A stretch of DNA of 53,778 nucleotides from a virus (lineage: Duplodnaviria > Caudoviricetes), in IMG/VR virus record IMGVR_UViG_3300017779_003527, positions 1 through 53,778 of that record; one strand, given 5' to 3'. The translations under genes were made by a program, and so were the position numbers. Every line of letters starts with the position of its first letter. Position 1 is the first letter of the stretch. A model generated the notes under the pieces. The model saw nothing but the letters and a program-made list of their open reading frames with translations. It made no database searches and was not told where the DNA came from. Positions 3,298-12,900 of this stretch are shown one piece after another.

Positions 3298-3305
3298 TAT
3301 AAATA
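3298..3305 (+). promoter_or_regulatory. T4-type late promoter heading the curli-associated operon
   Basis: TATAAATA 5 nt upstream of ATG 3311. Confidence 0.7.
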
Positions 3306-3310
3306 GTCGT

Positions 3311-3604
3311 ATGACTATTACGCAATTTTTACTTGAGGTCGGTGTACCAATAGGAAGTGCCTTAATTATGGCCTTCTTTATTTTTCTAACATTAAAGTAT
3401 ATGCTAGACTCTGTTAAGGGTCAGGTAGGTACACTTACAGGTATTATTGGCGGACTTGAGAGTAGAGTAAGACAGATGAATAATGATATGATAAAAATTG
3501 ATCTATTAGTTTCATCAGCATTGGAATTAAAACCTGATATTGAAAGGATTGCAAGAGCTGAAAACTTTATGGAAGATGGCAACATAGACGCTAGACGAGA
3601 TTAG
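3311..3604 (+). CDS. membrane-anchored coiled-coil protein (YvrJ/holin-like), paralog A
   Basis: N-terminal TM (EVGVPIGSALIMAFFIF), then a coiled coil similar to 3606..3902. Confidence 0.65.
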   Translation: MTITQFLLEVGVPIGSALIMAFFIFLTLKYMLDSVKGQVGTLTGIIGGLESRVRQMNNDMIKIDLLVSSALELKPDIERIARAENFMEDGNIDARRD

Positions 3605-3605
3605 T

Positions 3606-3902
3606 ATGGATAAAGTTGCGCTATTAGTTGCTGAGTTTGGTTTTCCAATGGTACTTGCATTGGGTATGGGATACTTTATGTGGTATCTGTGGAAGTTTCT
3701 AACATTGGAATTAAAACCAGCACTAGGAACCTCTCAAAAAGAGTTGATCAAATTGATTGATCAAATTAGAATGCTAGATAATGATTTAATTCGTCTACAA
3801 CAAAAGGTAGACACAGTATTAGAGTATAAACAGACTCAAGATATTATTAGAGATGCAGAAAAAGAGAATGCATTTCAGGAGTTAAAAGATAATGGTATAT
3901 AA
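3606..3902 (+). CDS. membrane-anchored coiled-coil protein (YvrJ/holin-like), paralog B
   Basis: EFGFPMVLALGMGYFMW TM; IRMLDNDLIRL..KVDTVLEYK matches VRQMNNDMIKID..VSSALELK of paralog A. Confidence 0.65.
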   Translation: MDKVALLVAEFGFPMVLALGMGYFMWYLWKFLTLELKPALGTSQKELIKLIDQIRMLDNDLIRLQQKVDTVLEYKQTQDIIRDAEKENAFQELKDNGI

Positions 3903-4392
3903 AATATTACTTAGTTTGGTTGGAGCGCTGGCATTAACAGCACAAGCAGACATAGTACACAAATTTAAAAATCCTTCATTCAGTGGACAAGGCACTGGTG
4001 CTCATTATTTAACAATTGAGAACCAGGAGCATTCAAGGAAGAAGGCAATCGAAGATGCTTTAGAGGCTGCAAGAAAAGCGGCAGAAAGGGAAGCAGAGAA
4101 TACTACATTGGCCAAATTCATGAGGAATCTTGAGTCAAGAATTTACGCACAGTTTGCAAAACAGTTAGTTGACAGTATGTTTTCTAACGACAGTCCAAAT
4201 ACGTTTGGTACATTTACATTAGAAGGTTCAGTCATTACTTGGGAACTTGTTCCCGGTGTTGATGGATCACCAGATGTTATTAGATTAACAGTTGTAGATG
4301 AGTTTGGATCTGAAACCGTTATAGAAATACCGGTTGGAACTGGATACTATTCACAAGACAGTGATGGTAATGGTTCAGATGGGGACGGATAA
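3892..4392 (+). CDS. csgF: curli assembly component CsgF
   Basis: Signal peptide (ALTAQA), then the CsgF-type mature N-terminus IVHKFKNPSFSG; F.RNLESRIYAQ..KQL helix; directly upstream of csgG. Confidence 0.8.
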   Translation: MVYKILLSLVGALALTAQADIVHKFKNPSFSGQGTGAHYLTIENQEHSRKKAIEDALEAARKAAEREAENTTLAKFMRNLESRIYAQFAKQLVDSMFSNDSPNTFGTFTLEGSVITWELVPGVDGSPDVIRLTVVDEFGSETVIEIPVGTGYYSQDSDGNGSDGDG

Positions 4393-5330
4393 TGGAAGCT
4401 CTACTTGGTTTAATGCTTATCTTAGGAGTCTTACAGGAGTCTGATACTCCAATATGGACTGATGAGCCAATAAAATGTGATCAAGTAGAAATAGTTGATA
4501 TGATAACTGCAGTTGAAAAAGCAGTTAACAGAACCTATCTTTGTGTTGAAGAAGCAGAAGTAATTAACTTACCATCTTACTTAGAACTATTACAACTACC
4601 GGCACCAGACCAAAAACCAGTTGTAGCTGTTTATGATTTTTTAGATAAATCAGGACAAAGAAAAGATTCCGCCTCAGGTCAGTCATTTAGTACTGCTGTA
4701 ACTCAAGGTGGTGTAGAATTATTAATAGATGCTCTAAAAACTGCAGGTGGAGGAACCTGGTTTAGAGTAGTTGAGAGACAAGGGATTGATCATCTAGTTA
4801 GAGAAAGACAGATTATTAGATCCGGAAGAGATGAAGCGGCAAAAGCGCTTAATATAGAGCCGCAAAATATTGGACCACTCTTATTCGCAGGAATGATTAT
4901 TGAGGGTGGCGTTATAGGTTATGACACTAATATAAAATCCGGAGGTCGTGGCGCGCGTATCTTTGGTATAGGCAAAACAAAACAGTATAAACAAGATCAA
5001 GTTACTGTTTCTGTTAGAGCTGTTAGTGTTCTAACTGGTGAAGTATTATTAAACGTCCAAACAAGAAAGTCTATCCTTTCTTATGGTGGCGGTGGAGATG
5101 TTTTTAAGTTTATTGAAAACGGAACCACCTTATTAGAATATGAAGACGGTGTGGGAAATAATGAGAATGTGACTTATGCGGTACGAACAGCTGTTGAAGC
5201 TGCAGTACTGGAATTAATATACCAAGGACATGATAGAGGTTTTTGGACAATCAAGGATGGACATAGGCACCCGCATAATGCGGACGGAACTCAGCTTTTA
5301 CATCCTTTAGAGGGAGAAGGAAATGAATAG
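4392..5330 (+). CDS. csgG: curli secretion channel CsgG
   Basis: CsgG hallmarks VAVYDFLDKSGQRK, SFSTAVTQG, WFRVVERQGIDHLVRERQIIR, IIEGGVIGYDTNIKSGG.GAR, DQVTVSVRAVSV.TGEVL. Confidence 0.93.
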   Translation: MEALLGLMLILGVLQESDTPIWTDEPIKCDQVEIVDMITAVEKAVNRTYLCVEEAEVINLPSYLELLQLPAPDQKPVVAVYDFLDKSGQRKDSASGQSFSTAVTQGGVELLIDALKTAGGGTWFRVVERQGIDHLVRERQIIRSGRDEAAKALNIEPQNIGPLLFAGMIIEGGVIGYDTNIKSGGRGARIFGIGKTKQYKQDQVTVSVRAVSVLTGEVLLNVQTRKSILSYGGGGDVFKFIENGTTLLEYEDGVGNNENVTYAVRTAVEAAVLELIYQGHDRGFWTIKDGHRHPHNADGTQLLHPLEGEGNE

Positions 5331-6051
5331 AATATTATTAGGCCTAACTTTACTATTCTCTACATCTTTCATTTATGCAGCAGCCACTGACGATAACGAA
5401 ATTAACATCAATCAAGAGGGTGATACTTTAACACTTTTAATTGATCAAATTGGTTACGGTAACAAAATTGGATTGAACGACTTTTCATCAAGCTCGTCCC
5501 CAATGGTAATTACTGGTACCACATTAAATTTTAATATAGATCAGCAAGGTAATGAAAACTTATTATACGGACCGTTCATCGCTGATACGTCGACCGTTGT
5601 TTTAAGTTGGATTGGCGACAGCAATGTATGGGACTGGAACATTGGTTCTACTGGATCAGCAGATGATATGAACATCGCTTCGGACATCACTGGTGACTCC
5701 AATACAATGGACCTTGACATAGGTGCTAACGCTAGTGCAGAAAGATTAGATTTTGACTTGACAGTAATTGGAAGTTCAAACGTATTTGATGTTGATATAG
5801 ACGTCGATGATGCAGTTTGGAACTTTGATATTACAGGTGGATCAAACAACATTAATACTATGCAAAAAGATGGTGGTGAGCAAGAGATCAATTTGACTCA
5901 TGTTGGCTCCGGTGCTGATATTGATATCAACCAAATGAGTGGATCATGCCCCCAGGGTATTTCTACTTGTAATGGTATCATAACATTGGACATAGATTCT
6001 GAGAATGCAACAATTCAAATTAATCAGAAAGACGCTACTAACGACAGCTAG
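5323..6051 (+). CDS. curlin-like (CsgA/B-like) secreted beta-solenoid repeat protein
   Basis: Signal peptide; repeats of the type x-I-x-Q/T-x-G-x-x-N (IDQIGYGN, IDQQGNEN, ITGDSN, VIGSSN, ITGGSN); very acidic; adjacent to csgG. Confidence 0.7.
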   Translation: MNRILLGLTLLFSTSFIYAAATDDNEININQEGDTLTLLIDQIGYGNKIGLNDFSSSSSPMVITGTTLNFNIDQQGNENLLYGPFIADTSTVVLSWIGDSNVWDWNIGSTGSADDMNIASDITGDSNTMDLDIGANASAERLDFDLTVIGSSNVFDVDIDVDDAVWNFDITGGSNNINTMQKDGGEQEINLTHVGSGADIDINQMSGSCPQGISTCNGIITLDIDSENATIQINQKDATNDS

Positions 6052-7153
6052 TATAGGCTTCTTCATGGGTTCGGTTTTAGCTGAACCCATTGGAGATATT
6101 AAAGAGTATAAAGGAAGCGCAAAGCTAACTAGAGAGGCTGGAGAAGAGCTCGTAGTCTCAGGTTCGTTCGTACCAGAAGTAAACATGAACGACACTGCCG
6201 AAACAAACAACGGCAGAATGCTTATCGAATTCAAAGATAAAGCAGAATTAACATTAACAGAAAACACAAGAGTATACATTGATAACGTATACTATGACCC
6301 CGATCCAAGTAAAAGTAAAATGACCATGCGTATGGCAATGGGCACTGCTAGATTTGCTAGTGGACGACTTGGAATGGTTAATAAGAACAATATAGATATA
6401 TCAACTCCAACAGCTACTATTGCTGTTAGAGGGACAGACTTTACGACAACTATAGATGAGCTAGGGAGAAGTTTAGTTATATTATTGCCAGACGACTTTG
6501 GTAATCCATCTGGACAAATAGACGTGTTTAATGATGGAGGAAAAGTCACACTTACAGAAGCATATGCAGCTACAATGGTAACAGCATATGATAGCCCTCC
6601 AACACCAACAGTTGTTATTAATAACATAACACCCAATATGATTGACAATATGTTTATTGTAGCACCACCTCCTGATGTAAGACGGAACTTAGAAGCTACA
6701 GCAAGGGACGAAGAAAATCAAGATCAAGGATTATTAGATGTAGACTTTTTAGAGTTTAATGAGCTTGAAGGAGATGCAGGACTATCTACAGACGAATTAG
6801 AATTTTCAGAATTAGATATAGACTTCTTGGATGTTGACTTCTTAACCGATTTGCTTGATATAGTAGAAGCATTAGTTCGAACTACAGCATCCCTCTCTGA
6901 CGTACAGAAACAGGGTTCTGGAGGCGCATTTACAATAAAAGGTGCTTCAGTTGGGTTTAACAAAGATTCACAATACAACGTGTTTGAACAAGATGGCGAC
7001 GTAGTATTTTTAAGGGACGTAAACGGAGCCATTAGATTGCAACTAGACATAGGTGCAGCTGCATCAATAGTATCATATGTAGAAGGATACGAAGGAGAGA
7101 TATGTTTAAATGGGTGCGATGATATTTTTATTGTCATAACTCAACAGAACTAA
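6005..7153 (+). CDS. secreted FecR-domain protein with acidic linker
   Basis: Signal peptide (GSVLA|EP); FecR core TNNGRMLIEFKD..L.L.ENT and ISTPTATIAVRGTDF; acidic LDVDFL repeats. Confidence 0.85.
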   Translation: MQQFKLIRKTLLTTASIGFFMGSVLAEPIGDIKEYKGSAKLTREAGEELVVSGSFVPEVNMNDTAETNNGRMLIEFKDKAELTLTENTRVYIDNVYYDPDPSKSKMTMRMAMGTARFASGRLGMVNKNNIDISTPTATIAVRGTDFTTTIDELGRSLVILLPDDFGNPSGQIDVFNDGGKVTLTEAYAATMVTAYDSPPTPTVVINNITPNMIDNMFIVAPPPDVRRNLEATARDEENQDQGLLDVDFLEFNELEGDAGLSTDELEFSELDIDFLDVDFLTDLLDIVEALVRTTASLSDVQKQGSGGAFTIKGASVGFNKDSQYNVFEQDGDVVFLRDVNGAIRLQLDIGAAASIVSYVEGYEGEICLNGCDDIFIVITQQN

Positions 7154-7174
7154 ATATTAATAGAGGTACAAAAA

Positions 7175-7384
7175 ATGATAGAAAAAATATTAGCTAACAG
7201 ACTAAACATTAAAGAAGATTCAATTTATGATTCGTCTGATATAGTTGAGGATCTGGGTGCAGACTCATTATCAGTAGTTGAAATAATTATGGATGTAGAA
7301 AGCGAATACAACATTTCAATTCCCGACGAAGATGCAGAACTCTTACATACTGTAGGAGAACTTAAGGCGTATATAAGTGATTAG
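7175..7384 (+). CDS. acpP: acyl carrier protein
   Basis: EDLGADSLSVVEIIM.VE..Y.I.IPDEDAE with the phosphopantetheinylation Ser; AGAGGT RBS. Confidence 0.92.
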   Translation: MIEKILANRLNIKEDSIYDSSDIVEDLGADSLSVVEIIMDVESEYNISIPDEDAELLHTVGELKAYISD

Positions 7385-8024
7385 ATTTTTAGCAATATTA
7401 TTTTTAACAATGCCAGCATTCGCTGGAGATAATCACGTACACATAGAACAAGTTAGTAGTGGGGATAATGTTAATATTGATATTGACCAGATAGGGTATG
7501 GCAACTTAATTAGATTTAGTACAGCACATAATAACAACACATTTAACTTAACTCAAAAAAATGATAACAATACAGTATCATGGGTACCCTGGTGGGGATC
7601 TGGAGCTAGTTGGGGTGGTGATGTTGATGGTGTTTCAAATGTAATTAATATAGACCAACGTGGTGGAGCTGTTTATGGAGCCCATGTACTTGGTGATTAT
7701 AATGCAGTTGACGTATACCAAGATGGTGACGGAGATCATGAGACTTACTTAGATATTCATTCTAACAATACTAATACAGATATATGGCAAGAGGGTGCTG
7801 GCGACAAGTATGCTAGACTTTATTATTACGGTACAGCTAATAATTCTGACGTAGATTTGATGCAAAAAGGATCGGGTGCACATACTGCATTAATTACATT
7901 AAAAGGATCCCAAGCAACTAATCTAGATTTATTACAACAAGGTGTAACCGATCAATCATATTCTTTAACTCAAACTTGTGTAACAGCTGGTGGTTGTACT
8001 ATCAATGTTACTCAAGGCGATTAG
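7377..8024 (+). CDS. curlin-like (CsgA/B-like) secreted repeat protein
   Basis: GTG start, signal peptide (PAFA|GDN); repeats IDQIGYGN, IDQRGG, VYQDGDG, IWQEGAG, LMQKGSG, LLQQG. Confidence 0.75.
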   Translation: MIRFLAILFLTMPAFAGDNHVHIEQVSSGDNVNIDIDQIGYGNLIRFSTAHNNNTFNLTQKNDNNTVSWVPWWGSGASWGGDVDGVSNVINIDQRGGAVYGAHVLGDYNAVDVYQDGDGDHETYLDIHSNNTNTDIWQEGAGDKYARLYYYGTANNSDVDLMQKGSGAHTALITLKGSQATNLDLLQQGVTDQSYSLTQTCVTAGGCTINVTQGD

Positions 8025-8041
8025 TTGAACTACATTATATT

Positions 8042-9319
8042 ATGAAAAGACTTTTTAATTTTAGTGTAAAGTGGGAGCCACTGTTAAAACTTGCCGGCGA
8101 GCCTACTAATGATATGTGTGCTGGTAGTGCAAATCAAAAACCAGAAAAAGTTGCTGATGATTATGATGTGTTTATATATAGAACACCATGGCATCAAAAA
8201 GTCATGAGATACTGCAGACACCACAAAGCAACTCTTATGAAAAATTGTGTGTGTGGTTGTAGAGCTGGGTTGGGAGATAAGGGTCTACTTAAACTAATAA
8301 GAAATAAAGACTGGTTCCCTCCAACATATTTTGAACATGAAGAGTGTGGTGATATATTAAACGACAAAGAACTATACTTTCAAAAACATTACAAATTAGA
8401 AGCTGGAACAGGAATAAGTATACTTCCAGGAAACCGTTTACACAACCGTTTATCTAAAACCAATAATCTTGTGCCACCCAGAAAGCTGCTTCAACGAAAC
8501 ATAGATCCGCATTTATTTGATATTGATTATAATGGATCACATCCAGACTTTATTGATAAAGATTTCTTTAAAGATAAAAAATATTCAATAAGAATATGGG
8601 CGCTTGTTAGTGATCAGGGTGACGTAGCAGTAATGAAAGATTATCATTATAAGTTTGCTCTGTTTAAGCATAAAACAAGAGATGAAATAATGGATACATC
8701 TAGCAGACTTGGTCATTGGATAAAGCCTGGTTGGTTTCATTTAACAAACTCTACTCACACAAGAGATATTAAAATGAGGTACAAATCTTATGATGATCTG
8801 GACCCTAGTGAAAAATTTGAAGAAATAGAAGAGTGGTGGCACGATCCTTTAGCCAATTTAAAGGCTCAACATAGCTTTATGAGATTAAATGATGATCCAA
8901 AATTCTTTGAAAATTATAATGAAATATATCCTAAAATGTGTCAATATATAAAAGAATACCTAGACGAAATAATACCTTATCAAAAAGTGCCAAAATGTCT
9001 TGAGGGTAGAACGTGGACAACATTTGGTATGGATTTTATGTTTGATAAGAATAAAAAAATGTATTTTTTAGAGGCAAATTTATGCCCAGGATATAAATTG
9101 TTTAAGCCAAGCGATACTTTATATATAGAATGGTGGAACAATGTGTCTGATTTAATTAGAAAAGATGATAGTTCTATGTGGACAATGATGAAAAGTAAAA
9201 GTAAAATGACAATAACTAAACAGGTCGATAACAAATACGAATATGAAGACGATGCAAGAACTTCTGACTTTGAACTCTTGAGAAGCGAGTGTTGTTATCC
9301 AGGATCAAAACCCTATTAG
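8042..9319 (+). CDS. tubulin-tyrosine-ligase (TTL)-family ATP-grasp protein
   Basis: LLQRNIDPHL, KYSIRIWALV (cf. KFDLRIYVLV), HLTNS, FGMDFMFD...YFLEANLCP (cf. FGxDFxLD..PWLLEVNxxP); start reassigned to ATG 8042. Confidence 0.8.
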   Translation: MKRLFNFSVKWEPLLKLAGEPTNDMCAGSANQKPEKVADDYDVFIYRTPWHQKVMRYCRHHKATLMKNCVCGCRAGLGDKGLLKLIRNKDWFPPTYFEHEECGDILNDKELYFQKHYKLEAGTGISILPGNRLHNRLSKTNNLVPPRKLLQRNIDPHLFDIDYNGSHPDFIDKDFFKDKKYSIRIWALVSDQGDVAVMKDYHYKFALFKHKTRDEIMDTSSRLGHWIKPGWFHLTNSTHTRDIKMRYKSYDDLDPSEKFEEIEEWWHDPLANLKAQHSFMRLNDDPKFFENYNEIYPKMCQYIKEYLDEIIPYQKVPKCLEGRTWTTFGMDFMFDKNKKMYFLEANLCPGYKLFKPSDTLYIEWWNNVSDLIRKDDSSMWTMMKSKSKMTITKQVDNKYEYEDDARTSDFELLRSECCYPGSKPY

Positions 9320-9327
9320 GAAAAATT

Positions 9328-9489
9328 ATGACAAATTGGTTATACAATAAACTAGTGCCACATGCTTTAAGGTTTAGAGAGTGGTCTAAAGATAAACTAT
9401 GGGTTAAAATACCACTAGGACTCTTAATCCTATGGATGATGGGGATATTTAATCCCTATTGGTGTGTTTATCCGGTATGTTGGATATAA
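9328..9489 (+). CDS. small membrane protein
   Basis: AGGA RBS before ATG 9328; one TM helix; C-terminal WCVYPVCWI. Confidence 0.6.
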   Translation: MTNWLYNKLVPHALRFREWSKDKLWVKIPLGLLILWMMGIFNPYWCVYPVCWI

Positions 9490-9492
9490 ATT

Positions 9493-11298
9493 ATGACTAA
9501 GTGGTGGAGTGTATTAATAACTATAATGCTATTGGCATCTGTCAAAGTATGGAATCCTGATCCAATAAAATCTTTAAGGTTTATCCAATACGATTACTTC
9601 CAACAGACGCAAGAACAAGTACAATCAGAAGACATAGTACTTATTAACATAGACGAAAAAGCAATTCAAAAAGAAGGACAGTATCCTTGGCCCAGAGAAA
9701 TAATGGCAAAGTATATGAACGAAGGACCTGGCAATTCTTTATATGTTCTAAACATGATATATTCAGAGCCAGATAGATTTGGTGGTGATCATGAATTCAT
9801 GCAAGCGATTGCAAACAAAGCAACAGTATTAACATCAGCACCAACCAATCAATTATCAGATGGAGTTGGAGCTCATGTTGGTGTAGGTACATTTGGAAAA
9901 GATCCTAAAGGATGGTTATATGAATATCCAGGATTATTATATCCTATTGATATACTCGGTAACTGGGCAATGGGAGTTGGAGCTGCAGCAAGTATTCCAG
10001 ACCAGCCAACAGGCGTTGTGCGAAGAGCTCCTCTTATCATTAGAGCAAATGATACTCAGTACCCTGGACTTGCGCTCGATACACTTAGAGTATTTACTGG
10101 AGAACCAAGCTATAATGTTAAAGTTGGAGACAATGGAGTAGAGTGGGTTAGGATTGGAAAACTAGATCCAATAACCACAGACAGCTTTGGCCAAATCCCA
10201 ATTGCATTTTGGAATAAATTTCAATCACAATCTATACTAGATGATATACCTCAAGGCAAAGTATTAGTATTTGGAATTACAGCTGAAGGATATTCTAATC
10301 CAGTTGCAACATCAATGGGACCAATGTATCCCCACGAAGTTCAAGCACATCTAATTCAGACCGCCCTTTCAGGTATTCAAATAGTCGAACCCGACTGGAG
10401 TGCAATAGCCGAGCTCGCTCTTCTGGTGAGCATATGTTTAGGAATTCTTCTAGCGGTCTATACTCTTCCCACAGTTGCTGCGGGGTTAGTGTCTGTTGGT
10501 ATGATTGGCGCCTCGATTGGAGTGTCGTGGTACTTATGGACGACCTTAATCTTCTTAGATGCATCCTTCGCTTTGCTTTGTTCAATAGTGGTATTTGCGC
10601 AGAGCTCGTTTAACAAATATTATACTACCTACAAGTTAAAAGAGCAGATTAAAAAACAATTTCAAACGTATTTATCACCCGACATGGTTAGGATGTTACA
10701 AGACGATCCAACACTATTAAAGCTGGGTGGTGAGAGAAGAGAGATGAGTTTTATGTTCATGGACATATGTGGATTCACACCCATATCGGAGCATTATAAA
10801 AACAATGATGACCCTGAGGGACTTGTAGAGTTAGTTAATAAATTCTTAGATTTGCAGACGAAGATAATTCTAAATAATAATGGAACAGTTGACAAGTACA
10901 TGGGCGATTGTATTATGGCATTCTGGAATGCACCATTGCCTTGTGACAACCATGCTGATATGGCTGTCAAGACTTCAATTGAAATAATAGAAGCAACCAA
11001 GAAACTTAATGAAGAACTTAAACCACTCAATCTCCCTCCTATTAATGTTGGCATTGGTGTCAATACCGGGGACTGCATTGTCGGAAACATGGGGTCAGAA
11101 GTTAGATTTGACTATTCCGTCATTGGAGATGCAGTCAACCTCGCAGCTAGACTTGAAAGCCAAACAAGGAATTATGAAGGGGTGGATCTGTTGCTATCAT
11201 CCTTCACTCGTGACGCAAGTACAGAAAGAACATTCACAGAAGTTGATTGCATTACAGTTAAAGGAAAAACAGAACCGGTTACAATTTATACATACTGA
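9493..11298 (+). CDS. CHASE2-domain class III adenylate cyclase
   Basis: N-terminal TM; CHASE2 (IVLINIDEKAI...GQYPWPRE, EPDR); three TM helices; catalytic FMDICGFT, DKYMGDCIM, GIGVNTG..IVGNMGS..RFDYSVIGDAVNLAARLE, VKGK. Confidence 0.95.
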   Translation: MTKWWSVLITIMLLASVKVWNPDPIKSLRFIQYDYFQQTQEQVQSEDIVLINIDEKAIQKEGQYPWPREIMAKYMNEGPGNSLYVLNMIYSEPDRFGGDHEFMQAIANKATVLTSAPTNQLSDGVGAHVGVGTFGKDPKGWLYEYPGLLYPIDILGNWAMGVGAAASIPDQPTGVVRRAPLIIRANDTQYPGLALDTLRVFTGEPSYNVKVGDNGVEWVRIGKLDPITTDSFGQIPIAFWNKFQSQSILDDIPQGKVLVFGITAEGYSNPVATSMGPMYPHEVQAHLIQTALSGIQIVEPDWSAIAELALLVSICLGILLAVYTLPTVAAGLVSVGMIGASIGVSWYLWTTLIFLDASFALLCSIVVFAQSSFNKYYTTYKLKEQIKKQFQTYLSPDMVRMLQDDPTLLKLGGERREMSFMFMDICGFTPISEHYKNNDDPEGLVELVNKFLDLQTKIILNNNGTVDKYMGDCIMAFWNAPLPCDNHADMAVKTSIEIIEATKKLNEELKPLNLPPINVGIGVNTGDCIVGNMGSEVRFDYSVIGDAVNLAARLESQTRNYEGVDLLLSSFTRDASTERTFTEVDCITVKGKTEPVTIYTY

Positions 11299-11602
11299 AC
11301 CAATAACAAACTATCAAGTAGCAACACTTATTGCTCTTCAAACATTAGATGTGTATACGACATACCGAGGTCTTAAATATGATTGTGTCAGAGAAATCAA
11401 TCCCCTAATGGGTGAAAGTCCATCAGTAGGAAAAATGTTATTTACAAAGGCAGCAATCCTTACACCAGCGCTGCAATATGATTATAATAATGGATCTCTG
11501 TCCCCAAAAATAATGAATGATATGAATTTTTTAATGTCTATAGTAGTTGCAAATAATTATCATGTCTTGCAAGATGCTAAAAGATATTGTGTAAAAAAAT
11601 AA
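11009..11602 (+). CDS. predicted exported/membrane protein (DUF5658-like C-terminus) overlapping the cyclase in the +1 frame
   Basis: Signal-peptide-like N-terminus; LQTLDVYTTYRGL...REINPLMG motif; no plausible start after the cyclase stop. Confidence 0.6.
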   Translation: MKNLNHSISLLLMLALVSIPGTALSETWGQKLDLTIPSLEMQSTSQLDLKAKQGIMKGWICCYHPSLVTQVQKEHSQKLIALQLKEKQNRLQFIHTEPITNYQVATLIALQTLDVYTTYRGLKYDCVREINPLMGESPSVGKMLFTKAAILTPALQYDYNNGSLSPKIMNDMNFLMSIVVANNYHVLQDAKRYCVKK

Positions 11603-11617
11603 CTAGGAGTTTAAATA

Positions 11618-12259
11618 ATGAAATTAAGATTGAGTAAAAACAGACTTAACCCTCATAAAAATTGGAAAAAGGCAATACCAGACAGTGAACTATCTAAGTT
11701 TACTGCAGGAGAGCTAGCATTGTTTGATCAAAACGGTTATGACTTAACTGTAGTAGAAAGAGCATTTGCAGCTGCTAATGGTTATGTTGTTCAAGCTCAT
11801 AGAGACAAATTTACATGCAAGACCCCATGGTTTAGAGATCTTGATGCTAAAACATATGGACCTCATTTAAACCATGCAGATTTATATTTTAGACATGGGT
11901 TTGCAGGAGCAGCACTTAAACAGCTAGAAGAAAGATCCAAAGTGCATCCTATTTTTCATAAGTTTACTCAAATGAGACCAAAATGGGGTATTGATATTAG
12001 TGTCGATTATGCTGACTTTGATGGTAATGTATTTGAATTGTTACACTTTGAATGGGACGGGTTTGATCTTATACAAGTTACTGAACAAAAATTAAAAGTT
12101 GAAAAAATAGTTAAAGGAATAGACTTTGATGCAAAGGCTCAAGAGATGCTTGACAGGAAAGAAGAGTGGCATCATTTAGACTTCTTTGGTCAGTCAGATT
12201 GGAAGCAAGCGTTCTGGGGATTACCAAAAGAGAATTTTAAAGAAGTAATTTGGCGTTGA
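11618..12259 (+). CDS. hypothetical phage protein
   Basis: AGGAG RBS, 213-aa ORF. Confidence 0.75.
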   Translation: MKLRLSKNRLNPHKNWKKAIPDSELSKFTAGELALFDQNGYDLTVVERAFAAANGYVVQAHRDKFTCKTPWFRDLDAKTYGPHLNHADLYFRHGFAGAALKQLEERSKVHPIFHKFTQMRPKWGIDISVDYADFDGNVFELLHFEWDGFDLIQVTEQKLKVEKIVKGIDFDAKAQEMLDRKEEWHHLDFFGQSDWKQAFWGLPKENFKEVIWR

Positions 12260-12284
12260 CTTTTAACCGAAACTTTAGTATAAT
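12256..12284 (+). promoter_or_regulatory. sigma70-type (early) promoter
   Basis: TTGACT-N17-TATAAT. Confidence 0.85.
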
Positions 12285-12306
12285 GTCCCATGTAAGGAGA
12301 TAAATT

Positions 12307-12900
12307 ATGATAAAGAAAAAAGTTATAGTCACAGATGTCGATGGCGTACTACTCAATTGGGAAGACGCGTTTCAGATATGGATGGAACATCAAGGCTTTG
12401 AAAAAGTAAAAAAACATAAGTTCATTTATAATGCAGCAGAGCAATTTGGTCTTGATAAAGCAGAGGGTAAAAAGTGGGTTAGGTTATTTAACCAGTCAGC
12501 CGCTATTGGTTTCTTACCACCTTTAAGAGATGCACAAGAAATTGTATCACTACTAGCTAATAATTATGGATACAGATTTGTAGTATGTACGAGTCTATCT
12601 AAAGACAAAGCAGCACAGGATTTGAGAACCAGAAACCTCAAAAAATACTTTGGTGATGTTTTTGATGATTTTGTATATCTTGATACAGGAGCAGATAAAG
12701 ATGAGGCTCTATATAAGTTAGGTAAAAAATACAGAGGCTGTTTGTGGGTAGAAGATAAAGTAGAAAATGCTATTGCAGGAGCTAAGGTAGACTTTGAACC
12801 TGTAGTAATGGAACATGGCTACAATATGAATGAAGAGCACGATTGCTTCGTAGCTAGAAATTGGGAAGATATTTACTTACATATTATTAAAAGGAAATAA
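12307..12900 (+). CDS. HAD-superfamily phosphatase (T4 gp30.2-like)
   Basis: VTDVDGVLLNW motif I and WVEDK motif IV. Confidence 0.85.
   Translation: MIKKKVIVTDVDGVLLNWEDAFQIWMEHQGFEKVKKHKFIYNAAEQFGLDKAEGKKWVRLFNQSAAIGFLPPLRDAQEIVSLLANNYGYRFVVCTSLSKDKAAQDLRTRNLKKYFGDVFDDFVYLDTGADKDEALYKLGKKYRGCLWVEDKVENAIAGAKVDFEPVVMEHGYNMNEEHDCFVARNWEDIYLHIIKRK

Follow-up and report, generated by a model that had tools for sequence, protein, structure and literature searches.

Zaragoza-Solas et al. 2020 (PMC7029224) were the first to note a viral curli, or type VIII secretion system (T8SS), module. According to Wittmers et al. 2022 (PMC9599517), podo- and myo-pelagiphages carry it as one or two genes labelled 'HK', followed by CsgF, CsgG, CsgA/B, FecR, CsgA/B and an adenylate cyclase, and it was present at each of the 65 GOV2 stations as well as in metatranscriptomes. 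Buchholz et al. 2022 (PMC9004378) described the module in the phage Melnitz and proposed a pinholin or secretin role for it with the help of structural modelling. The host clades of the cultured relatives are reported to be without curli genes (PMC7029224, PMC9004378). Here, we analyzed positions 3,298 to 11,602 of a viral sequence of 53,778 nucleotides, IMG/VR record IMGVR_UViG_3300017779_003527 (this whole stretch is called the window). The region is almost certainly the copy of this known pelagiphage-type module in an uncultured T4-like marine phage. The sequence-only reading from which the analysis started knew of no description of the full combination; this was wrong, as PMC9599517 describes it, including its expression in metatranscriptomes.

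The source is a 53.8-kb phage fragment with a GC content of about 36%, whose PHROG matches to baseplate wedge, hub, tail tube and tape-measure genes indicate a T4-like phage. The virus record is classed as a linear fragment with an estimated completeness of 33%. A tblastn search with CsgG found Pelagibacter phage HTVC008M and four records of Methylophilales phage Melnitz. The gene order is shared with both phages, and the Melnitz annotation names FecR and the cyclase. A megablast search of the region against the phage database gave zero matches. As in the pelagiphage module, CsgF and CsgG are adjacent and followed by a curlin repeat protein; farther downstream come FecR, another curlin repeat protein and an adenylate cyclase. 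Two small genes ahead of csgF, here called tmA and tmB, take the place of the published 'HK' genes, and the two are equated by this position. They are homologues of the genes that precede csgF in HTVC008M and Melnitz. The window copy differs from the published module in having an acyl carrier protein (ACP), an ATP-grasp ligase and a 66-aa open reading frame (ORF) in addition.

The main texts of PMC7029224 and PMC9599517 do not mention CHASE2, and the main texts of the viral-module papers do not mention the DUF5658 gene or its overprinting. Neither 'acyl carrier' nor 'ligase' occurs in the main text of PMC9599517. In a full-text literature search, CsgG, phage and CHASE2 appeared together in no paper, and since 2022 curli, pelagiphage and adenylate cyclase were found together only in PMC9599517. 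What is new beyond the published module is the lack of kinase features in the 'HK' genes, the conserved overprinted DUF5658 gene, the mosaic cyclase with its catalytic residues, a cassette of the same kind in Henriciella, and T8SS-free FecR/CHASE2-cyclase pairs in alphaproteobacteria.

The curli system of E. coli (csgBAC/csgDEFG) shares the CsgG and CsgF families with the window, and the candidate substrates in the window are likewise secreted Q/G/N-rich repeat proteins. The two differ in several respects. No CsgD, CsgE or CsgC family was matched by Pfam among the ORFs of 2–13.5 kb, an interval to which the further Pfam negatives given below also refer; the rest of the phage genome lies outside the window. 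The curlin repeats remain under the Pfam cut-off, and FecR, the cyclase, tmA/tmB and the DUF5658 gene are additions of the phage module.

Conserved core and passenger genes

A scan of viral contigs with the window CsgG gave 197 relatives, of which the best 80 were examined. A second, more distant viral CsgG clade provided 73 loci. Both samples consist of the nearest relatives of their query and are not a random draw, and each gene was counted only at loci whose contig extends far enough for it. In the first clade, tmA was found in 73 of 73 loci, tmB and CsgF in 74 of 74 each, curlin-like A in 68 of 68, FecR in 57 of 57, curlin-like B in 50 of 51, the cyclase in 39 of 39, and the DUF5658 gene in 28 of 37. 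The second clade gave a similar picture for CsgF (71/71), curlin-like A (70/70), FecR (63/63), the cyclase (41/41) and tmA/tmB (37/38). Here, 21 loci have tmA upstream of the module in the same orientation, and 26 have it downstream in the opposite orientation. Although it has moved, the pair is kept, and thus it stays linked to the module through rearrangement. The core of the module is nine genes: tmA, tmB, CsgF, CsgG, curlin-like A, FecR, curlin-like B, the CHASE2 cyclase and DUF5658. Since FecR and the cyclase were never apart from csgFG in the examined loci, the independent assortment that the sequence-only reading had named as the outcome contrary to its proposal was not seen. Its view of all twelve genes as one unit held for the nine-gene core and failed for ACP, the ligase and the 66-aa ORF, which are rare or absent in relatives.

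The ACP gene was present in 3 of 80 loci (L037, L050 and L052), or in 2 of the 51 reaching far enough. The ligase was found in none of 39 loci reaching far enough and occurs only in L003, a 99%-identical contig. A further four clusters of this ligase were found in a set of 5.8 billion proteins, its relatives carry PF14398, and it had no match in the phage database. The TTL family was matched with 22.6 bits (cut-off 20.1) over 70 residues only, and YheCD with 22.1 bits (cut-off 26.8). The ATP-grasp match is thus a marginal one. The 66-aa ORF was seen in 0 of 39 loci and matched neither Pfam nor PHROG; its status as a real gene is uncertain. The slot between curlin-like B and the cyclase (window 8025–9492) measures 0.65–3.4 kb among relatives such as L008, L011, L022, L026, L041, L042, L053 and L070, and in 9 of the 12 loci inspected it holds a different small C-tail-anchored acidic protein. 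We conclude that two insertion slots have taken up ACP, the ligase and the 66-aa ORF as unrelated passengers, and we treat them as cargo of an insertion hot-spot. By our own reading of translations, and not by a family search, slot genes of relatives resemble those of uroporphyrinogen decarboxylase, IscU, IscA, a GT2 glycosyltransferase and an LpxH-like phosphoesterase.

Predicted properties of the encoded proteins

The cyclase is predicted to consist of an N-terminal transmembrane segment, a periplasmic CHASE2 domain (residues 18–316), a transmembrane bundle and a catalytic domain (residues 417–597), and its hydrophobic segments are visible in the alignment. Its closest solved relatives are the Cya2-derived cyclases 6fht (8.9e-35) and 2w01 (2e-31). 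Residues D424, K468, D472, S542, N549 and R553 were found at the catalytic positions. We take these to have the usual roles in class III cyclases, namely metal binding (D424/D472), specification of the purine (K468/S542) and stabilization of the transition state (N549/R553). The Lys/Ser pair makes ATP the likely substrate, and the conservation of all six residues points to an intact catalytic domain. A second catalytic type was observed in L008, L038 and L094, with a C-terminal extension of about 80 residues that is also present on the Henriciella cyclase. The distances calculated for the CHASE2 half and for the catalytic half were almost uncorrelated (Spearman 0.15), which indicates that the cyclase gene is a mosaic whose halves have different histories. 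The distances of the FecR domain were correlated with those of the CHASE2 half at a Pearson coefficient of 0.57 (0/2000 permutations) and with those of the catalytic half at 0.39 (p 0.024).

The 3' end of the cyclase gene is overprinted by the DUF5658 ORF, whose start lies 290 nt ahead of the stop codon of the cyclase, in frame +1, with its signal peptide and first ~97 codons inside the overlap. Of 35 entries that have both genes, 23 (the window and 22 loci) show an overlap of 290–308 nt, and the cyclases of these loci are 44–81% identical to that of the window. Each overlapping DUF5658 ORF starts with a signal-peptide-like N-terminus. The long-cyclase lineage has an overlap of 29 nt, and in L030 the gene is free-standing and located upstream of the cyclase. 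These data bear out the overprinted exported protein of the sequence-only reading and indicate that the DUF5658 gene is a real, exported and conserved part of the module.

The two membrane proteins at the start of the operon are paralogues, as had been proposed (31% identity, E 3e-11). Twenty tmA/tmB sequences were aligned over ~95 residues, and they contain one hydrophobic helix followed by a helical tail. The invariant columns of this 20-sequence alignment are M1, G11 and F23, and there is no invariant His. None of the 20 members matched a kinase family at E<=5, and a search of the PDB with the tmA/tmB profile gave coiled coils as the only matches. On these grounds, the histidine-kinase label is unsupported, and tmA and tmB appear to be bitopic coiled-coil membrane proteins. 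PHROG 18771, the group of tmA, is recorded with function not known. In the protein atlas, tmA and the DUF5658 protein were placed in unnamed viral clusters only; YvrJ at 0.88 is a lead only.

The model of the FecR protein (pLDDT 68) contains a confident FecR domain at residues ~30–195, a low-confidence acidic linker and a small C-terminal beta domain. Its best match was the C-terminal cell-surface signalling domain of PupR, 6ovm_R (Z 15.2, root-mean-square deviation 2.8, 139 aligned residues), followed by the putative anti-sigma factor 4m0h_A (Z 13.9) and 5ix9 (Z 10.0); everything else was at Z 5.5 or lower. The FecR domain stands directly after the signal peptide, and there is no transmembrane or cytoplasmic anti-sigma part. 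The FecA-FecR-FecI and PupB-PupR systems share with it the FecR-domain fold, and the PupR domain was solved in complex with an outer-membrane transducer domain. In contrast to these systems, the window protein is predicted to be soluble and secreted, lacks the transmembrane and anti-sigma parts, and has no sigma factor or TonB-dependent transducer matched near it; Pfam families of extracytoplasmic function (ECF) sigma factors and TonB-dependent receptors gave no match in the interval. The possibility that its C-terminal domain is a curlin repeat was rejected after a profile–profile comparison with curlin-like A (probability 0.5%).

Pfam matches (Table 1) agree with the identities first read for CsgF, CsgG, FecR, ACP and the CHASE2 cyclase. 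CsgG aligned to the E. coli CsgG structures with E 3e-50; for CsgF, no PDB sequence was matched at E<=0.01. The AlphaFold2 model of curlin-like A is an all-beta solenoid (pLDDT 81.6) whose best fold matches are generic beta-helices, with a top Z of 16.4 to 1vh4. Foldseek gave zero matches for this model at E<=0.001, and the curlin-like A profile found no meaningful match among PDB sequences. Both curlin-like proteins are predicted to be secreted repeat proteins, with A modelled as a beta-solenoid, and for both the repeat score is below the cut-off of the curlin family.

Bacterial relatives, the proposed relay and its rivals

A genome scan with the CsgG alignment gave 306 relatives, and the best 80 that were examined comprised 12 phage-like contigs and 68 cellular loci. 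The 12 phage-like contigs sit in metagenome-assembled genomes (MAGs) of unrelated phyla; 11 of them carry tmA/tmB, and one (L107) shares 98% identity with a viral contig. They are likely binning contaminants, and so the MAG labels are no guide to the host. The labels at these loci (L084–L092, L094, L095 and L107) are Rhodobacterales, Sphingobacteriales, Synechococcus, Saprospirales, Planctomycetaceae, Flavobacteriaceae and Pirellulales. FecR and the cyclase were found near csgG in one of the 68 cellular loci, L093; the other 67 gave no tblastn match at E<=1e-3. At positions 6466–12486 of L093, on a 397-kb contig of a Henriciella MAG, CsgF, CsgG, a 504-aa secreted repeat protein, FecR and a CHASE2 cyclase are encoded. 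The flanks contain TonB-dependent receptors, a FAA hydrolase and oxidases and no phage genes, and the GC content is 50.5% in the cassette versus 53.3% and 52.7% in the flanks. In a quick tree, the L093 CsgG joined the viral clade (SH-aLRT 90) on a long branch with an open basal fork, where sister and nested positions are indistinguishable. The tmA/tmB profile had no match in the Henriciella genome, an empty answer that shows nothing.

Among 200 further genomes sampled from the family of Henriciella, none had a full-length relative of the Henriciella cyclase, and a homologue at E<=1e-60 was found in 129 of 401 alphaproteobacterial genomes. At 8 of 20 alphaproteobacterial CHASE2-cyclase loci there was a FecR match within 7 kb, in five of these within 1 kb; around the same 20 loci no CsgG, CsgF, curlin-like gene or tmA/tmB was detected. 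FecR beside a CHASE2 cyclase without T8SS is therefore a bacterial pair in its own right. Three papers report FecR-domain genes as neighbours of CHASE2 sensors in bacteria (PMC5192318, PMC9239204, PMC5498481), and together with our 8 loci they agree with the sequence-only reading on this point. Joined to T8SS, the FecR/CHASE2-cyclase pair is seldom met in cells and is a fixed feature of these phages.

Several described systems resemble the inner part of the module. The CyaD1/CyaD2/CyaK–NsrA–Clr system of Sinorhizobium meliloti has CHASE2 class III cyclases and a periplasmic FecR protein, SMc02177, in the Clr-controlled set (PMC5498481). According to the introduction of PMC13001267, the outer-membrane protein NsrA feeds the CHASE2 cyclases CyaD1/D2/K and is needed for perceiving an external protein signal. 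The outer-membrane partner is thus NsrA there and would be the T8SS channel here. S. meliloti also has Clr, whereas a Clr/CRP-type receptor was not found in the window, HTVC008M, Melnitz and three large contigs, and SMc02177 is reported as not required for signal perception (PMC5498481). The Burkholderia 'BiofilmReg' cluster with RR-LysM/FecR and a CHASE2 kinase and the Campylobacterota cluster of CHASE2 cyclase-PDE-FecR-TPR are alike in that a periplasmic FecR protein is encoded beside a CHASE2 sensor; as described, both differ in being without T8SS and in having other outputs and extra partners. In PMC5192318, which quotes Pfam, CHASE2 is an extracytoplasmic sensor domain with the sensed cue stated as unknown.

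From these likenesses, we propose a relay from the outer membrane through FecR and the CHASE2 cyclase to cyclic AMP (cAMP). CsgG and CsgF would form an outer-membrane channel in the infected cell, through which both beta-solenoid curlin-like proteins would be exported. The FecR-domain protein would remain periplasmic, comparable to the signalling domain of PupR/FecR, which touches an outer-membrane protein, and could signal to the CHASE2 sensor what condition the channel, the fibre or the envelope is in. The catalytic domain would then make cAMP in the cytoplasm, so that information would pass from outside to inside, which is the natural direction for an extracytoplasmic CHASE2 domain. All contacts in this relay, its signal, its timing and the target of cAMP are what we infer. 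Signalling is the best-fitting mechanism and a plausible one, based on the CHASE2 sensor, the PupR-like FecR domain, the apparently intact cyclase, the independent FecR/CHASE2 pairing and the NsrA precedent. As a whole, a known viral module working as a surface-to-cAMP relay is the best explanation that we can offer, and its prospects are nearly even; the relay mechanism taken for itself is tentative and short of an even chance. That a curli-type channel with its beta-solenoids was recruited as the outer-membrane arm of FecR–CHASE2 cAMP surface signalling, both in infected cells and in a rare Henriciella lineage, is a further step which we regard as rather doubtful. If true, it would give the first ligand or partner logic proposed for a viral CHASE2 domain and a use of T8SS other than in fibres. 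The module takes 8 kb of the phage genome and is widespread (65 GOV2 stations, PMC9599517). With a CHASE2 sensor on the cyclase, FecR/CHASE2-cyclase as a bacterial pair and a cellular cassette of the same order, vague 'regulators next to curli genes' become testable in E. coli.

A number of observations weigh against the relay. The better correlation of FecR with the CHASE2 half may merely reflect their closeness on the DNA. Between lineages, the CHASE2 half falls to 32–34% identity while the FecR domain stays at 62–66%, and this fits a loose FecR–CHASE2 fit or a FecR domain constrained by another partner. A cyclic nucleotide-binding domain (PF00027) was found neither in the window, HTVC008M and Melnitz nor in three large viral contigs, the hosts not being searched. 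In PMC9599517, the adenylate cyclase is reported as sometimes missing beside a viral T8SS. At the outer membrane, canonical CsgG has an N-terminal lipobox Cys, whereas the window CsgG has a hydrophobic N-terminus (window 4392–4460 in the alignment) without it; this Cys is also missing in L005, L014 and L026 and present in L037, L044, L070, L028 and HTVC008M. Both curlin-like proteins, with 15.5 (A) and 15.4 (B) bits for Curlin_rpt, are under the Pfam threshold of 20.7, and the top 50 VIA matches of the curlin-like A model do not include CsgA. Short RNA-library contigs at least 95% alike, from four runs of three studies, lie on tmB, CsgF, CsgG, curlin-like A, FecR and the cyclase; they agree with the published expression data and do not prove transcription.

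The strongest competitor of the relay takes the module for a complete curli system that makes surface amyloid fibres, for aggregation ('sibling capture') or as a shield against other phages, with FecR and the cyclase as its regulators. This idea is stated in PMC7029224 and PMC9599517, and the constant presence of CsgF, CsgG and two secreted repeat proteins, which model as beta-solenoids, speaks for it. Nevertheless, Melnitz-infected cultures were reported to be without clumping in cytograms or transmission electron microscopy (PMC9004378), and no CsgD-, CsgE- or CsgC-like family was matched. Regulation of this kind also meets the difficulty that cytoplasmic cAMP needs a receptor to affect periplasmic secretion, and none was found in the phages, while the extracytoplasmic position of the CHASE2 sensor (PMC5192318) favours a flow from outside to inside. 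We therefore consider fibres as the sole purpose to be unlikely. In a second view (Buchholz 2022), modelled structurally in PMC9004378, the CsgG/F channel would contribute to the timing of lysis by acting as a pinholin or a gated secretin, and the position of the operon among late-type genes behind a TATAAATA site is in line with it. The homologous bacterial cassette with no phage genes around it argues against a lysis-specific role. Moreover, CsgG is an outer-membrane channel by family, whereas holins act at the inner membrane, and the two secreted repeat proteins, FecR and the cyclase, which are always linked, would be left unexplained; a lysis timer is thus quite improbable.

The FecR domain itself is what recommends an uptake function, raised in PMC9599517, in which an open CsgG pore would import cofactors or siderophores and FecR would signal the iron status as in FecA-FecR-FecI. 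This is very improbable, given a FecR protein without a cytoplasmic anti-sigma part, the lack of a matched ECF sigma or TonB-dependent receptor family, and the fact that in bacteria such FecR proteins pair with CHASE2 sensors and not with iron transport. The least probable proposal, with hardly any chance, is a working system of all twelve genes, where ACP, the TTL-like ligase and the small transmembrane protein would serve, for example, in the modification of curlin. All three lie inside the gapless operon and ACP keeps its DSL serine, but their counts among relatives (3/80, 0/39 and 0/39 loci) are those of passengers, the same slot holds unrelated genes in relatives, and ACP and the ligase are without an export signal.

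Layout of the locus and its surroundings

Positions 3311–11602 are filled by twelve ORFs on the + strand, with a spacing between neighbours of −290 to +21 nt (Table 1). The ORF coordinates confirm the places of the twelve genes and the gaps of at most 21 nt given by the sequence-only reading. Signal peptides were visible in CsgF, curlin-like A and B, FecR and the DUF5658 protein; ACP and the ligase have none.

Table 1. Features of the module in the window, in order of position.
Feature	Position	Strand	Remarks
TATAAATA, T4-late-promoter-like site	3298–3305	+	5 nt ahead of the first ATG
tmA, predicted single-pass membrane protein with coiled-coil tail, 97 aa	3311–3604	+	core; PHROG 18771
tmB, tmA paralogue, 98 aa	3606–3902	+	core; 31% identity to tmA
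CsgF homologue with signal peptide	3892–4392	+	Pfam CsgF 8.3e-14
CsgG homologue, outer-membrane channel	4392–5330	+	Pfam CsgG 8.2e-53
Curlin-like protein A, signal peptide and Q/G/N-rich repeat beta-solenoid (model)	5323–6051	+	Curlin_rpt 15.5 bits, below cut-off
Secreted FecR-domain protein	6005–7153	+	signal peptide; Pfam FecR 4.8e-10
Acyl carrier protein (ACP), passenger	7175–7384	+	PP-binding 8.8e-13; PHROG 5934; DSL serine
Curlin-like protein B, signal peptide, GTG start	7377–8024	+	Curlin_rpt 15.4 bits, below cut-off
ATP-grasp ligase (TTL/YheCD-like), passenger	8042–9319 (likely ATG; listed TTG ORF from 7976)	+	TTL 7.3e-5, YheCD 1e-4
66-aa ORF with C-terminal hydrophobic stretch, not conserved	9289–9489	+	no family matches
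CHASE2 class III receptor cyclase	9493–11298	+	CHASE2 1.4e-27; Guanylate_cyc 2.7e-18
Putative exported DUF5658 protein, overprinted on the cyclase 3' end	11009–11602	+	Pfam DUF5658 8.7e-6

The site that had been noticed ahead of the operon is indeed present. The motif was not enriched in the window, with 8 matches versus 9.2 expected, and as it is no commoner than chance the site is only promoter-like; its promoter function is inferred. The motif, 5 nt and ATG recur with the same spacing at 2081–2096 (ATG 2094) and 3298–3313, where they head two successive gene blocks. At both blocks, this spacing leaves almost no space for a leader or a ribosome-binding site.

The window sequence was detected in 14 viral or seawater DNA runs, at no less than 0.91 of the sampled words. 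The stretch 7760–9295 had no RNA-library contig in all four RNA runs, which is not evidence of absence. In run X17, one RNA contig (depth 43) skips 148 nt within csgG (window 5062–5211); a variant, a different organism or an artefact of assembly could each account for it. Downstream of the module, at 11618–12900, a 213-aa protein without a family match and a HAD hydrolase are encoded, and both recur behind the module in L022, L025, L047 and L078.

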